Notes under the pieces: model-generated
Database searches by the model: none
What the model saw: the letters and a program-made list of their open reading frames with translations, nothing else
What the model was told of the DNA's origin: nothing
In this document: positions 2,809-7,890 of the stretch, piece after piece
How positions within the stretch are numbered: the stretch's first letter is position 1
How the letters are laid out: each line of letters opens with the position of its first letter
Translations under genes and position numbers: made by a program
Virus record (IMG/VR): IMGVR_UViG_2585427776_000003
Length of the DNA stretch: 8,206 nucleotides
Source of the DNA: a virus
Taxonomy: Duplodnaviria > Heunggongvirae > Uroviricota > Caudoviricetes
Direction: 5' to 3' (one strand)

Positions 2809-3891
2809 TTAGAACTGGTAAACCATACCTACAGCAACGATATCATCGGTAGCAACGCCAGATGCTTTCGTGAAATCGCTCTTATCAATCAGGTTGATTT
2901 TGTAATCAACAAAAGTGGACATATTTTTGTTGAAGTAATAGGTTGCACCTACATCAATATATTCAACCAGGTCCTGATCACCCCACGCACCCAAGTCTTT
3001 TCCTTTAGATTGCAGGTAAGCAACGGACGGACGCAGACCGAAGTCGAACTGATATTGTGCAACTACTTCGAAGTTTTGTGCTTTGTTGGCAATATGGTTA
3101 TTACCAAAAACAGTCATGTTCTGGGTTTCAGAATAGGTGGTAGCCAGATAGATGTTGTTCGCATCATATTTCAGACCAGCTGCCCATACTTCAGCATTTT
3201 GACCAGATGCATTCAGGCTGTTGTTACCGTAGATAACCTGATTATTAGTGCGGTCAGATTTAGCATAGGTTGCACCTACACCGAATCCTTCATACTCATA
3301 AGTAGTGGAGAAACCGAAACCATCACCATTAGCTTCAGTTACGTCAGTGCGGTCATTTTTACCCTGATACTGAGCAGCAAAGTTCAGACCATCAACCAGA
3401 CCAAAGAAGTCGTTGTTACGATAAGTTGCAACACCAGTGGTGCGACCAGTCATGAACACATCTGTTTGGGTCCAGGTATCGCCACCGAATTCTGGCAGAA
3501 CGTCAGTCCACGCACCGATGTCATATGCTACACCGTAGTTACGGCCGTAATCGATTGAGCCGTAGTCCCCGAATTTCAGGCCTGCAAATGCAAGACGGGT
3601 TTTGTCTTTGGAGGAGCCTTGAGATTCAGCGCGGTTGCCTTTGAATTCATATTCCCACTGACCGAAACCAGTCAGTTGATCGTTGATTTGGGTTTCACCT
3701 TTGAAGCCAAGACGGGCATAAGTAGTATCACCATCATCTGCATCATTAGAGGAGAAGTAGTGCTTGGCATTAACTTTCCCATATAGATCCAGCTTGTTAC
3801 TGTCTTTATTATAAATTTCAGCTGCCTGAGCAGACATCGCCATCAGTACTGATGCAGCTACAGCAGAAATTGCCACTGTTAATTTTTTCAT
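2809..3891 (-). CDS. nmpC: OmpC/OmpF/PhoE-family general porin (NmpC/OmpD-like), apparently intact
   Basis: Signal peptide [23 protein letters not shown], then mature N-terminus [17 protein letters not shown]. Aromatic/Gly-rich beta-barrel pattern and C-terminus ...GMVYQF with the terminal Phe typical of OMP barrels. Start taken at ATG 3891 (complement); the track ORF to 3951 adds 20 unlikely residues. Confidence 0.93.
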
Positions 3892-4478
3892 CGTGAGCCC
3901 TTTTTTTGAACTATTATTAAAAAATGATGTCACTGCGCGATAAATATTCATCTAATCAATGTGATTATTTCAAGATGTAAGTTTTAGTTTCTCATTTAAT
4001 TTGTGAAGTAGATCTCTATTTTTATCTGAACTTTTTCTATCGAAACCTATTTGTGGCTCTTATTTGAACAAAAGTAAACCTATTAGCTAATTTATATTAA
4101 TAGTTGTTATTTATGGAGGCTCTATAATTCGGCAGTTTAATTTAAATCAACTAAAAATAACGCCTGAAATTATTTATTGGTTATTTGTTGAGGTTTTCTT
4201 ATGTATTTGTGGTGGTGTTTTGAACACTCGGTAGCATTCTCATAAATATCATTCAGTGGTTTACGTACGTAAAAAATTGGTTATGCTGTTAAGAGTGGTT
4301 ACTTCGTCACACAGCTTAAACCCGCCGTCGAGCTGGTTTTTCCATTTTCTGAGTCTCGATATTAGCTGATAACTCAATACCTGAGTTATTCACTGACTCC
4401 GAGTCTGTTACGTTTCTGCTTTTTTGCGATACGTTGTATTCCCTCAATTTACACCCGCTTTGTCTGCGAGGTGGGGTT
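3892..4478. promoter_or_regulatory. AT-rich intergenic region (~590 bp) upstream of nmpC on the minus strand and upstream of the lysis cassette on the plus strand; promoter(s) not resolved
   Basis: Visibly AT-rich with many A/T runs (3900-4260 especially) and no convincing ORF. The minus strand contains GGTTTACTTTTGTTCAAATAAG (plus-strand complement around 4059-4080), which resembles OmpR-box half-sites of porin promoters. Confidence 0.4.
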
Positions 4479-4694
4479 ATGAAATCCATGGATAAGTTAA
4501 CAACGGGTGTCGCCTATGGCACCTCAGCAGGTAGTGCCGGTTACTGGTTTTTACAGCTGCTCGATAAAGTCACGCCCTCACAGTGGGCAGCAATAGGTGT
4601 GCTGGGTAGCCTGGTATTTGGCCTGCTGACGTACCTGACAAACCTTTATTTCAAGATTAAAGAAGATAAGCGCAAGGCTGCGAGAGGTGAATAA
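4479..4694 (+). CDS. essD: class II holin of the phage-21 S21 pinholin type, dual-start (antiholin from Met1, holin from Met4)
   Basis: ATG AAA TCC ATG GAT gives MKSMDK. Two hydrophobic segments ([18 protein letters not shown] and [18 protein letters not shown]) and a basic C-tail [11 protein letters not shown]. The track ORF from 4434 adds an upstream in-frame ATG. Confidence 0.9.
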
Positions 4695-5191
4695 TGCCTC
4701 CATCATTACGAAAAGCCGTTGCTGCTGCTATTGGTGGCGGAGCAATTGCTATAGCATCAGTGTTAATCACTGGCCCAAGTGGTAACGATGGTCTGGAAGG
4801 TGTCAGCTACATACCATACAAAGATATTGTTGGTGTATGGACTGTATGTCACGGGCATACAGGAAAAGACATCATGCTCGGTAAAACGTATACCAAAGCA
4901 GAATGCAAAGCCCTCCTGAATAAAGACCTTGCCACGGTCGCCAGACAAATTAACCCGTACATAAAAGTTGATATACCGGAAACAACGCGCGGCGCTCTTT
5001 ACTCGTTCGTTTACAACGTGGGCGCTGGCAATTTCAGAACATCGACGCTTCTTCGCAAAATAAACCAGGGCGATATCAAAGGCGCATGTGATCAGCTACG
5101 TCGCTGGACATATGCTGGCGGTAAGCAATGGAAAGGTCTCATGACTCGTCGTGAGATTGAGCGTGAAATCTGTTTGTGGGGTCAGCAATGA
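4694..5191 (+). CDS. rrrD: SAR endolysin (T4-lysozyme-fold muramidase, phage 21 R21 / P1 Lyz type)
   Basis: ATG at 4694 overlaps the essD stop (TAATG). N-terminal Gly/Ala-rich weakly hydrophobic SAR segment [20 protein letters not shown], followed by the catalytic triad positions E35, D44, T50 (GLEG...KDIVGVWTV). Confidence 0.93.
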
Positions 5192-5649
5192 ACAGAGTAA
5201 CCGCGATTATCTCCGCTCTGGTTATCTGCATCATCGTCTGCCTGTCATGGGCTGTTAATCATTACCGTGATAACGCCATTACCTACAAAGCCCAGCGCGA
5301 CAAAAATGCCAGAGAACTGAAGCTGGCGAACGCGGCAATTACTGACATGCAGATGCGCCAGCGTGATGTTGCTGCACTGGATGAAAAATACACGAAGGAG
5401 TTAGCTAATGCGAAAGCTGAAAATGATGCTCTGCGTGATGATGTTGCCGCTGGTCGTCGTCGGTTGCACATCAAAGCAGTCTGTCAGTCAGTGCGTGAAG
5501 CCACCACCGCCTCCGGCGTGGATAATGCAGCCTCCCCCCGACTGGCAGACACCGCTGAACGGGATTATTTCACCCTCAGAGAGAGGCTGATCACTATGCA
5601 AAAACAACTGGAAGGAACCCAGAAGTATATTAATGAGCAGTGCAGATAG
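5188..5649 (+). CDS. rzpD: Rz inner-membrane spanin (i-spanin)
   Basis: ATG at 5188 overlaps the rrrD stop (ATGA). N-terminal TM segment [18 protein letters not shown], then a coiled-coil-like, charge-rich periplasmic domain ending ...INEQCR. Confidence 0.9.
5408..5590 (+). CDS. rzoD: Rz1 outer-membrane lipoprotein spanin (o-spanin), embedded in the +1 frame of Rz
   Basis: Strong SD AAGGAG 7 nt upstream of ATG 5408. Lipoprotein signal [20 protein letters not shown] with lipobox VVGC, and a Pro-rich mature part ([15 protein letters not shown]). Lies wholly inside rzpD. Confidence 0.85.
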
Positions 5650-5680
5650 AGTTGCCCATATCGATGGGCAACTCATGCAA

Positions 5681-5974
5681 TTATTGTGAGCAATACACAC
5701 GCGCTTCCAGCGGAGTATAAATGCCTAAAGTAATAAAACCGAGCAATCCATTTACGAATGTTTGCTGGGTTTCTGTTTTAACAACATTTTCTGCGCCGCC
5801 ACAAATTTTGGCTGCATCGACAGTTTTCTTCTGCCCAATTCCAGAAACGAAGAAATGATGGGTGATGGTTTCCTTTGGTGCTACTGCTGCCGGTTTGTTT
5901 TGAACAGTAAACGTCTGTTGAGCACATCCTGTAATAAGCAGGGCCAGCGCAGTAGCGAGTAGCATTTTTTTCAT
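5681..5974 (-). CDS. borD: Bor/Iss-family outer-membrane lipoprotein
   Basis: Product MKKMLLATALALLITGCAQQTF... has a lipoprotein signal with lipobox LITGC. 97 aa, opposite strand immediately after Rz, as for lambda bor. Confidence 0.9.
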   Translation of the reverse strand: MKKMLLATALALLITGCAQQTFTVQNKPAAVAPKETITHHFFVSGIGQKKTVDAAKICGGAENVVKTETQQTFVNGLLGFITLGIYTPLEARVYCSQ

Positions 5975-6107
5975 GGTGTTATTCCCGATGCTTTTTGAAG
6001 TTCGCAGAATCGTATGTGTAGAAAATTAAACAAACCCTAAACAATGAGTTGAAATTTCATATTGTTAATATTTATTAATGTATGTCAGGTGCGATGAATC
6101 GTCATTG

Positions 6108-6172
6108 TATTCCCGGATTAACTATGTCCACAGCCCTGACGGGGAACTTCTCTGCGGGAGTGTCCGGGAATA
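6108..6172. repeat. 10-bp inverted repeat TATTCCCGGA ... TCCGGGAATA separated by 45 bp, in the borD-ybcV intergenic region
   Basis: Read directly: 6108-6117 and 6163-6172 are exact reverse complements. The spacer is GC-rich with CCC/GGG runs (CAGCCCTGACGGGGAAC...GCGGGAG). Confidence 0.5.
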
Positions 6173-6264
6173 ATTAAAAACGATGCACACAGGGTTTAGC
6201 GCGTACACGTATTGCATTATGCCAACGCCCCGGTGCTGACACGGAAGAAACCGGACGTTATGAT

Positions 6265-6675
6265 TTAGCGTGGAAAGATTTGTGTAGTGTTCTGAATGCT
6301 CTCAGTAAATAGTAATGAATTATCAAAGGTATAGTAATATCTTTTATGTTCATGGATATTTGTAACCCATCGGAAAACTCCTGCTTTAGCAAGATTTTCC
6401 CTGTATTGCTGAAATGTGATTTCTCTTGATTTCAACCTATCATAGGACGTTTCTATAAGATGCGTGTTTCTTGAGAATTTAACATTTACAACCTTTTTAA
6501 GTCCTTTTATTAACACGGTGTTATCGTTTTCTAACACGATGTGAATATTATCTGTGGCTAGATAGTAAATATAATGTGAGACGTTGTGACGTTTTAGTTC
6601 AGAATAAAACAATTCACAGTTTAAATCTTTTCGCACTTGATCGAATATTTCTTTAAAAATGGCAACCTGAGCCAT
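6265..6675 (-). CDS. ybcV: YbcV-like protein (DUF1398), 136 aa; function unknown
   Basis: Open frame with the best RBS (GGAAGG, 8-nt spacing) ahead of ATG at 6675 ([13 protein letters not shown]...). In-frame upstream alternative starts at 6717 (ATG) and 6798 (GTG) lack an SD. Codon usage is visibly AT-rich compared with neighbouring phage core genes. Confidence 0.8.
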
Positions 6676-6960
6676 TGGTAAAACCTTCCATGTGATACGA
6701 GGGCGCGTAGTTTGCATTATCGTTTTTATCGTTTCAATCTGGTCTGACCTCTTTGTGTTTTGTTGATGATTTATGTCAAATATTAGGAATGTTTTCACTT
6801 AATAGTATTGGTTGCGTAACAAAGTGCGGTCCTGCTGGCATTCTGGAGGGAAATACAACCGACAGATGTATGTAAGGCCAACGTGCTCAAATCTTCATAC
6901 AGAAAGATTTGAAGTAATATTTTAACCGCTAGATGAAGAGCAAGCGCATGGAGCGACAAA

Positions 6961-7167
6961 ATGAATAAAGAACAATCTGCTGATGATCCCTCCGTGGATC
7001 TGATTCGTGTAAAAAATATGCTTAATAGCACCATTTCTATGAGTTACCCTGATGTTGTAATTGCATGTATAGAACATAAGGTGTCTCTGGAAGCATTCAG
7101 AGCAATTGAGGCAGCGTTGGTGAAGCACGATAATAATATGAAGGATTATTCCCTGGTGGTTGACTGA
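6961..7167 (+). CDS. ybcW: YbcW-like small protein (68 aa); function unknown
   Basis: ATG at 6961 with GGAG 8 nt upstream. Product [68 protein letters not shown] has no TM segment and is predicted mostly helical. Confidence 0.7.
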
Positions 7168-7331
7168 TCACCATAACTGCTAATCATTCAAACTATTTAG
7201 CCTGTGACAGAGCCAACACGCAGTCTGTCACTGTCAGGAAAGTGGTAAAACTGCAACTCAATTACTGCAATGCCCTCGTAATTAAGTGAATTTACAATAT
7301 CGTCCTGTTCGGAGGGAAGAACGCGGGATGT

Positions 7332-7526
7332 TCATTCTTCATCACTTTTAATTGATGTATATGCTCTCTTTTCTGACGTTAGTCTCCGACGGCAGGCTTC
7401 AATGACCCAGGCTGAGAAATTCCCGGACCCTTTTTGCTCAAGAGCGATGTTAATTTGTTCAATCATTTGGTTAGGAAAGCGGATGTTGCGGGTTGTTGTT
7501 CTGCGGGTTCTGTTCTTCGTTGACAT
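7332..7526 (-). CDS. ylcI: YlcI-like small basic protein (DUF3950), possible ribbon-helix-helix-type DNA binder
   Basis: 64-aa ORF MSTKNRTRRTTTRNIRFPNQMIEQINIALEQKGSGNFSAWVIEACRRRL... has a basic N-terminus, then a short beta-like segment (RNIRFP) and a helix, a pattern reminiscent of Arc/MetJ/CopG folds. Convergent with ybcW; its start lies about 200 bp from cosN. Confidence 0.7.
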   Translation of the reverse strand: MSTKNRTRRTTTRNIRFPNQMIEQINIALEQKGSGNFSAWVIEACRRRLTSEKRAYTSIKSDEE

Positions 7527-7725
7527 GAGGTTGCCCCGTATTCAGTGTCGCTGATTTGTATTGTCTGAAGTTGTTTTTACGTTAAGTTGATGCAGATCAA
7601 TTAATACGATACCTGCGTCATAATTGATTATTTGACGTGGTTTGATGGCGTAGATGCACGTTGTGACATGTAGATGATAATTATTATCATTTTGCGGGTC
7701 CTTTCCGGCGATCCGACAGGTTACG

Positions 7726-7775: not shown

Positions 7776-7890
7776 GGCGTTTCCGTTCTTCTTCGTCGTA
7801 ACTTAATGTTTTTATTTAAAATACCCCCTGAAAAGAAAGGAAACGACAGGTGCTGAAAACGAACTTTTGGGCCTTTGTCGTTTCCTTTCT
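7776..7890 (+). other. cosB: gpNu1 binding sites R3 (about 7776-7791), R2 (about 7838-7853, inverted), R1 (about 7875-7890), with an AT-rich IHF-type bend site between R3 and R2
   Basis: Three copies of the CGTTTCC core (GGCGTTTCCGTTCTTC; GGAAACGACAGGTGC on the opposite strand; TTGTCGTTTCCTTTCT) in the lambda arrangement. Exact site boundaries are approximate and from memory. Confidence 0.7.

Follow-up and report, generated by a model that had tools for sequence, protein, structure and literature searches.

The lambda gene ybcV (lambdap78) in a DLP12-like prophage: a DUF1398 cassette and candidate host-benefiting moron

Results

A lambda gene in a DLP12-like prophage

The window, by which we mean the whole 8,206-nucleotide stretch of DNA analyzed here (IMG/VR record IMGVR_UViG_2585427776_000003), is a DLP12-like lambdoid prophage of Escherichia coli; its features are collected in Table 1. 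Positions 5600-7725 match the right end of phage lambda up to cos (lambda 46378-48502) at 99.4% identity. The identity ends at about 7725, which corresponds to cos, and ybcV, ybcW and ylcI all lie inside the bor-to-cos interval. Lambda and the window have the gene order Rz - bor - p78 - p79 - ylcI-like ORF - cos in common, whereas the window differs from lambda in being a chromosomal prophage of DLP12 type, with rusA, quuD and an nmpC-type porin gene upstream. The neighboring bor is a known lysogenic-conversion gene. An Rfam scan of the window returned no match, and for the DUF1398 frame NCBIfam gave only a sub-threshold chance match.

Table 1. Features in and around the ybcV cassette, in window coordinates
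Feature	Position	Strand	Remarks
IS3-family transposase fragment, then rusA, ylcG, quuD			Left part of window, in this order
nmpC/ompC-type porin gene		-	After quuD, before lysis cassette
Lysis cassette essD-rrrD-rzpD			Between porin gene and bor
bor lipoprotein gene	5681..5974	-	Same strand as ybcV; Pfam Lambda_Bor, E 1.9e-30, and annotation
Terminator-like hairpin and T-run	6174..6208	-	Downstream of ybcV; consensus scan and minimum-free-energy fold
GC-rich stem-loop	6228..6256	-	Starts 9 nt after stop; conserved in ybcV and ydfO types
ybcV / lambdap78 CDS	6265..6675	-	136 codons plus TAA stop (6267-6265); DUF1398, YdfO-like fold
Conserved 80-bp upstream block	6676..6755	-	Travels with gene; probably promoter, operator and 5' UTR
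In-frame extension, 41 codons	6676..6798	-	GTG 6798, ATG 6717; judged non-coding
Shine-Dalgarno GGAAGG	6684..6689	-	8 nt before ATG 6675; annotated RBS in lambda imm21
Candidate weak sigma-70 promoter	6709..6737	-	-35 TTGAAA 6737-6732; 17-nt spacer; -10 CAAACT 6714-6709
PdhR-box-like palindrome ATCTGGTCTGACCTCTT	6737..6753	+	Centered 70 nt upstream of start codon
ybcW / lambdap79, 68 aa	6961..7167	+	Divergent from ybcV; phrog_657 and annotation
ylcI (YlcI/YnfO family, DUF3950)	7332..7526	-	PF13132, E 1.9e-20; NCBIfam NF041551
nohD	start 7915		Right end of window

The gene under study lies in a 534-nt open reading frame at 6265-6798. It counts 177 codons from a GTG placed immediately after a TAA of the same frame, and ATGs in frame at 6717 and 6675 would give 150 and 136 residues. 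The frame is on the minus strand, which the initial annotation had left out of its description. It matches Pfam DUF1398 (PF07166) with 157-158 bits against a gathering cut-off of 22 (E 2.6e-46), over profile positions 1-119 of 119, and matches YdfO of the Qin prophage (PDB 2HH8) with E 1e-71. In near-identical E. coli genomes PGAP calls the same gene 'ybcV, DUF1398 domain-containing protein', at 411 nt. As its surroundings match the lambda right end at 99.4% identity, the frame is lambdap78, named ybcV in DLP12. The lambda copy (NC_001416 47042..47575, complement) is the same gene, with a protein 99.3% identical (135/136 residues) and a flanking 2.1 kb that is 99.4% identical. The gene was thus already known and the observation of the frame is confirmed: the initial call of a ybcV-like DUF1398 gene is borne out by Pfam, while the lambda right end and lambdap78 had gone unrecognized.

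By base composition ybcV stands apart from its surroundings. Its GC content is 0.324 (0.307 at third codon positions), against 0.474 (0.410) for rrrD, 0.506 (0.532) for rzpD, 0.548 (0.567) for the part of nohD present and 0.451 for the whole window, in agreement with the AT-richness relative to the lysis and terminase genes first described for it. The bor-to-cos slot had also been described as variable, and it is, since the flanking 2.6 kb occurs in 304 phage records but a YbcV relative in only 43 of 50,697.

The start codon and the upstream frame

The frame is indeed open for 41 codons upstream of the 136-aa start, from GTG 6798 to ATG 6675, as the initial annotation had reported. Comparison of 17-31 homologs fixes the start nonetheless. 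In all other paralog types, in-frame stops close the extension at -7, -15, -17 or -20 codons, and every full-length homolog, even at 21% identity, starts with the corresponding Met. The Shine-Dalgarno sequence before ATG 6675 has a purine-rich counterpart at the equivalent place in 17 of 17 aligned homologs, and direct reading of the sequence found none before ATG 6717 or GTG 6798. Likewise, neither the family profiles (Pfam, PHROG) nor the 2HH8 construct starts more than 5 residues away from the 136-aa Met. Given the upstream stops of the paralogs, the shared Met and the Shine-Dalgarno sequence 8 nt before ATG 6675, the product is almost certainly the 136-aa form, which had been the preferred start from the outset.

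The N-terminus had nevertheless been called ambiguous, a description that no longer holds: stops interrupt the frame upstream in all other paralog types, and the DNA there is conserved as non-coding sequence, a published PdhR box included. A real or additional product of 150 or 177 aa could draw on the open frame in lambda-type and DLP12-type sequences and on the RefSeq lambda record, which annotates the 177-aa form. That record (NC_001416) gives only 'Predicted by GeneMark' for its 534-nt gene, and the curated annotation of lambda imm21 (CPT) gives the 411-nt form a ribosome-binding site and includes the ylcI-like ORF as well. With stops in every other paralog type, no Shine-Dalgarno sequence of its own, an overlap with conserved non-coding DNA and family profiles that start at the shorter form, a longer isoform is highly improbable.

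The upstream block, its regulation and the cassette boundaries

Between the lambda and ycgX types, the 80-bp upstream block has 53 identities in 83 positions (64%), equal to the coding sequence (64%), while the region from -180 to -81 is at the background of 23-28% identity. Synonymous sites are saturated between these types (dS 1.6-2.3). Judging by these alignments, the extension is conserved as DNA and not as protein. In Qin-type prophages the 3' end of ynfO occupies part of the block, and because of this overlap some of its conservation could be a coding relic instead of a regulatory signal. A structured RNA leader in the block was considered and rejected (RNAalifold -1.76 kcal/mol, no covariation, single-sequence z-score +0.82).

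The block contains a PdhR-box-like palindrome, a 17-mer with one exact match where zero are expected by chance, and its half-site GACCAGAT is invariant among the paralogs. In K-12, SELEX is reported to have identified the same sequence, lying between ybcV and ybcW, as a site for PdhR, and the mRNAs of both genes are down about 10-fold in a pdhR mutant (PMC7660256). Overproduction in BL21(DE3) of T4 MotB, a protein that interacts with H-NS and counteracts it, raises ybcV and ybcW mRNAs more than 1000-fold. Invariant alignment columns suggest a weak sigma-70 promoter within the block; the candidate matches 7 of 12 consensus positions, which is below the promoter-scan threshold. The ATG of the 150-aa form (6717-6715) would fall inside its spacer.

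Downstream of the gene lie two hairpins. In the GC-rich stem-loop 87.5% of cells are paired and one compensatory change (U-A to C-G) is found, and its conservation is not significant, with 98 of 500 shuffles scoring as well. The terminator-like hairpin is conserved in the lambda-type, L032 and L034 sequences and is absent from the Qin type. Homology among the paralogs begins about 80 bp upstream of the coding sequence and ends about 60 bp downstream of it. From these boundaries, ybcV is almost certainly a self-contained cassette of about 550 bp, made up of the upstream block, the coding sequence and a 3' hairpin.

The protein and its fold

At 136 aa, YbcV has the single-domain length of DUF1398 (about 130-140 residues), and it belongs to the YdfO fold solved in 2HH8. 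AlphaFold run on the single sequence gave an unusable model (pLDDT 40), and the model used instead was built with a 31-sequence alignment (pLDDT 86.9, pTM 0.80). Its predicted topology is helix-helix-strand-strand-strand, twice. Profile comparison aligns the first half with the second in register (E 0.0034), and for this reason the fold looks like an internal duplication. In the model, YbcV is built of two tandem alpha-alpha-beta-beta-beta repeats that form a pseudo-dimer.

Structure prediction had been put forward as a route to the function of this protein. That proposal has in effect been answered, since the structure of the 80%-identical YdfO was already solved in 2006 (2HH8). Foldseek against the PDB and against the predicted viral structures of BFVD found nothing beyond that entry, and when PDB sequences were searched with a profile only 2HH8 came up. 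With no informative neighbors of the fold in the PDB and BFVD, structure comparison cannot suggest a function. The MHC class I-like alpha1-alpha2 platform (ULBP6, MICA and viral mimics) gave a marginal score at 6-13% identity, but its order of strands and helices differs and only half of YbcV aligns; we treat the likeness as a geometric resemblance and not as homology.

Thirteen positions are listed as invariant or near-invariant: R15, L27, Y35, T41, N43, A96, A98, G99, V100, W103, R112, Y114 and E125. The set carries no catalytic signature, and the conserved aromatic and basic residues of the strands, as read from the alignment columns, would be compatible with a binding surface. Since the highest 19-residue Kyte-Doolittle mean is 0.81, YbcV has no membrane segment. 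The absence of both a membrane segment and a catalytic motif had been noted at first reading and stands. With a pI of 9.2, YbcV is a soluble, basic, cytoplasmic protein.

Distribution, selection and genomic context

The gene and its upstream block are present at 80% identity or more in 2,996 of 5,426 complete E. coli genomes, at 1 to 5 copies each. In a survey of one genome per species, genuine homologs were found in Enterobacteriaceae only, in Escherichia, Shigella, Citrobacter, Klebsiella, Kluyvera, Raoultella and Pseudocitrobacter, and in Salmonella diarizonae. Profile searches for distant relatives did not widen the family: near-identical E. coli sequences dominated the second, and the third returned only 21 proteins. 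An exhaustive phmmer search yielded 254 representatives, mostly fragments, and a scan of viral contigs found only copies 99-100% identical.

ybcV is under purifying selection, with dN/dS of 0.16-0.36 among the ybcV and ydfO types and 0.04-0.07 among the ycgX types. Two defective prophages still carry the gene, DLP12 as ybcV and Qin as ydfO. YdfO of the Qin cryptic prophage (NESG target ER251) is 80% identical to YbcV. Unlike ybcV, ydfO directly follows ynfO, which lies 120 nt upstream on the same strand and in frame; it has neither ybcW nor bor as a neighbor, both being absent from Qin-type loci, and lacks the long open upstream frame.

YcgX of K-12 and the stand-alone DUF1398 genes of other enterobacteria are 21-53% identical to YbcV, with the same length and start position, and the ycgX type also has the upstream block. 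They differ from ybcV in lying outside prophages: ycgX adjoins bluR, the neighbors of the others include yedEF, umuDC and cynT-like genes, and none is common to all. Lone chromosomal copies at unrelated sites occur in Escherichia, Citrobacter, Klebsiella, Kluyvera, Raoultella, Pseudocitrobacter and Salmonella diarizonae. A Pseudocitrobacter subclade carries a hydrophobic N-terminal extension. A context survey had been proposed in the initial annotation. In lambdoid prophages a ylcI/ynfO gene is always near the DUF1398 gene, and the diverged homologs are all lone genes, with yedEF, bluR, umuDC, a diguanylate cyclase gene, transporter genes, an adhesin gene and others beside them and no conserved partner gene across their loci.

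Published phenotypes

CRISPRi knock-down of lambdap78 leaves an efficiency of plating of 1.3-1.9, and the gene was scored non-essential (PMC10695390). On the host side, ydfO is induced by ionic liquid, and YdfO overexpression is cited as raising oxidative-stress resistance. Genome-wide screens give weak signals for ybcV: its overexpression alters glycogen content, and its transposon mutants are depleted under colistin. The gene also appears in a transcriptome screen for sabinene tolerance. The literature naming DUF1398, PF07166, COG5562 or lambdap78 assigns no function, in keeping with the initial view that the function is unknown. Both a y-ome review of 2024 and an in-silico study of 2025 continue to list ydfO and ycgX among the uninterpretable genes.

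Discussion

The identity of ybcV, its start codon and the extent of its cassette can be stated with near certainty. What the gene does is a matter of weighing probabilities, and we favor, at roughly 60%, a reading in which ybcV is an autonomous, moron-type gene that works to the advantage of the host. A moron, in the usage of Juhala and Hendrix, is an autonomous accessory unit. Two marks of such units are found at this locus. The base composition is deviant (GC 0.324 against 0.47-0.55), and the gene is present or absent between otherwise adjacent genes, both among phage records, 304 of which match the flanks but only 43 of which encode the protein, and in Qin-type loci, which have ydfO without bor or ybcW. 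By analogy and not by homology, ybcV would resemble the morons bor and lom in being a small autonomous unit of deviant composition between conserved late-region genes, oriented against late transcription, dispensable to the phage and variable among related phages. Bor and Lom differ from YbcV in that they are outer-membrane proteins with known lysogen phenotypes, whereas YbcV is cytoplasmic.

In the model we propose, a cassette of foreign, AT-rich composition has entered the interval from the lysis genes to cos, antisense to the late operon, an arrangement that is classic for morons and is seen in the neighboring bor. It would have a weak, regulated promoter of its own, used in the resident prophage. 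Published work suggests H-NS silencing of this promoter and a need for PdhR. YbcV would take no part in virion assembly or lytic growth. Instead, it may act alone, binding a host macromolecule through the patch of conserved Tyr, Trp, Arg, Thr and Asn residues seen in the alignment, with a modest benefit to the host that most likely concerns stress or envelope physiology. A benefit to the host is favored because the gene is dispensable to lambda, runs antisense to the late transcript and is under purifying selection in defective prophages and at phage-free sites. Its persistence at chromosomal sites without phage genes further argues for a function that needs no other phage component.

An anti-phage role had been suggested in the initial annotation, and YbcV could in principle protect the lysogen as a single-protein factor, by superinfection exclusion or abortive infection. 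Its gene occupies a variable accessory slot in temperate phages, next to the lysogenic-conversion gene bor and against the direction of late transcription, and its cryptic-prophage and domesticated copies are under purifying selection, as are many prophage defense genes. However, none of the 5,027 PADLOC models (PADLOC-DB 2.0) matches YbcV, the best being Csx23 at E 0.12, and there is no conserved partner gene. The protein lacks a membrane segment, a nuclease or NTPase motif or any other effector-like motif. The literature on DUF1398, ybcV, ydfO and ycgX reports no phage phenotype; the sole link, a gene loss listed for APEC mutants resistant to phage, points in the opposite direction. We therefore consider an anti-phage role unlikely.

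Could YbcV instead serve the lytic cycle, as an anti-defense or host-takeover accessory that is dispensable only in laboratory hosts? Phage counter-defense proteins are typically small and non-essential with folds lacking known relatives, a description that fits YbcV, and prophage genes including ybcV are strongly induced once silencing is lifted. The gene nevertheless lies antisense to the late transcript and far from the early operons, and only 43 of 50,697 phage records carry it. Moreover, purifying selection has kept it in prophages that have long been defective and at chromosomal sites outside prophages, where a function serving the phage alone should be lost. A lytic role is, on this evidence, quite unlikely.

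The constant proximity of ylcI or ynfO in lambdoid loci raises another idea, that YbcV and YlcI/YnfO (DUF3950, a suspected ribbon-helix-helix regulator) form a two-gene module resembling a toxin-antitoxin or regulator-effector pair. The Qin-type arrangement, in which ynfO precedes ydfO by 120 nt in the same orientation and frame, would suit it. In the window, however, ybcW on the opposite strand separates ylcI from ybcV; none of the diverged homologs has a YlcI relative; and YlcI/YnfO occurs without DUF1398 in phage satellites. Pfam and PDB searches matched YlcI to no ribbon-helix-helix family or structure, and YdfO overexpression is reported as protective, not toxic. Measured against type II toxin-antitoxin systems, the genes are non-adjacent, the partner is missing beside diverged homologs and no ribbon-helix-helix match is found, and we regard such a module as very unlikely. 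Proteins that appear to fuse DUF3950 to DUF1398 (P0278 and P0124) are gene-calling artefacts, since the DNA has a TGA stop where the proteins have Trp.

Database labels would make YbcV a virion or envelope protein ('head protein' for the 177-aa ORF in RefSeq lambda and for phrog_413, 'phage envelope protein' derived from COG), but the RefSeq basis is the GeneMark prediction alone, the protein has no signal peptide or membrane segment, the gene lies on the strand opposite the late morphogenesis operon, knock-down does not lower plating, the gene is non-essential for plaques and lone chromosomal copies lie far from phage structural genes, so that the probability of such a role is negligible. The labels failed every test applied and are unfounded. 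Other phage records label the gene 'putative envelope protein'.

It is tempting to speculate further that the YdfO fold represents an unrecognized small host-modulating effector, a pseudo-dimeric binding module carried by temperate coliphages on a cassette silenced by H-NS and metabolically gated by PdhR, and repeatedly domesticated by enterobacteria. We hold this to be doubtful. If it were true, the protein might protect its host by excluding phages, or by re-tuning envelope or oxidative-stress physiology through a specific host target.

None of these results would surprise a specialist, and ybcV is a reasonable, ordinary candidate gene. Our analysis adds the 136-aa start, the boundaries of the cassette, an upstream control block with a published PdhR site and the correction of misleading labels. 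In a broader context, ybcV is among the few genes without a function left in lambda, the best-studied bacterial virus, and about 55% of complete E. coli genomes have it or a close paralog. That prevalence, together with purifying selection, argues that the gene does something, and the plausible roles now narrow to a stand-alone function that would benefit the host.

Origin of the homologous sequences

Among the genome contig matches, 71 species-representative loci carry a ybcV that is 97-100% identical, and 28 of these come from taxa outside the enterics, such as Pseudomonas, Kitasatospora, Brevibacillus, Arcanobacterium, Cohnella and Pedobacter. Seven contigs of ~3.5 kb, from unrelated assemblies, carry exactly the same span of lambda with foreign sequence of 40-70 nt at both ends, and therefore represent a single identical lambda amplicon. 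The likeliest identity of this amplicon is the DNA control strand used in nanopore sequencing. The amplicon also accounts for the error-laden proteins that 3.5-kb ENA contigs contributed to the homolog searches. Some such contigs were deposited as plasmids, among them CP136411.1 from Arcanobacterium hippocoleae, which has been treated as a plasmid in published work (PMC11171008). MW057783.1, the 48,361-bp "Campylobacter phage CJLB-4" (hit H70), encodes a YbcV 99.3% identical to that of lambda; its DNA is probably that of lambda and not of a phage of Campylobacter.

An apparent DUF3950-DUF1398 fusion, represented by the 233-aa protein P0278, whose cluster has 761 member sequences, and likewise by P0124, was rejected as an artefact of gene calling. 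At the position of a Trp in the protein, the DNA carries a TGA stop; these short AT-rich contigs were thus called with a genetic code that reads TGA as Trp. In a Pseudocitrobacter subclade of DUF1398 proteins (P0307-P0311; 21-25% identity), the usual start position lacks Met, and a 17-residue hydrophobic N-terminal extension (MLTLISIIVTIAIIII) is present that may be a membrane anchor.

Coordinates of features in the window and in homologous loci
Feature	Window	Other coordinates
Porin gene (nmpC/ompC-type)	2809-3951	
AT-rich intergenic DNA	3900-4300	
Lambda amplicon	~4264-7711	lambda 45,042-48,488
Non-enteric ybcV loci		L006-L027, L029, L036-L040
ynfO stop / ydfO upstream block (Qin-type)	6732-6755 (equivalent)	L030:5710-6001
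ybcW (lambdap79)	6961-7167	
ylcI	7332-7526	
Inverted repeat	7834-7890	
DUF3950-DUF1398 "fusion" (P0278)		L155:1274-1975
Pseudocitrobacter DUF1398 genes		L070:5941-6393, L073:5938-6405

Neighboring genes and sites

The porin gene is intact, with 380 codons counted from the first ATG (1083 nt in the PGAP annotation), and the intergenic DNA on its upstream side has an extremely high AT content (GC 0.25).

The lambdap79 gene (ybcW) is known to be dispensable. Because ybcW points in the direction of the late transcript, and that transcript has to continue across cos to reach the terminase genes, its "essential" score probably reflects a polar block. That rating comes from a CRISPRi screen of lambda (PMC10695390), and RNA-seq of K-12 lists ybcW-ylcI as a convergent "excludon" (PMC12288877). 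Read by eye, the YlcI sequence (..RNIRFPNQMIEQINIALEQKGSGNFSAWVIEACRRRL..) resembles a strand-helix-helix DNA-binding motif; Pfam and PDB sequence searches did not confirm a ribbon-helix-helix relationship.

Between the end of lambda identity at cos (~7725) and the start of nohD (7915) lies a 26-nt inverted repeat, 81% complementary with a 5-nt spacer, which presumably belongs to cosB, the region bound by terminase.

In Qin-type prophages, ynfO lies 20 codons upstream of ydfO and in frame with it, and the ynfO stop codon (TGA) falls within GACCAGATTGAAG, an invariant stretch of the block upstream of ydfO. The lambda-type block retains a relic of the ynfO C-terminus (..VRPD-stop), and therefore part of the conservation of the upstream block may be historical in origin.
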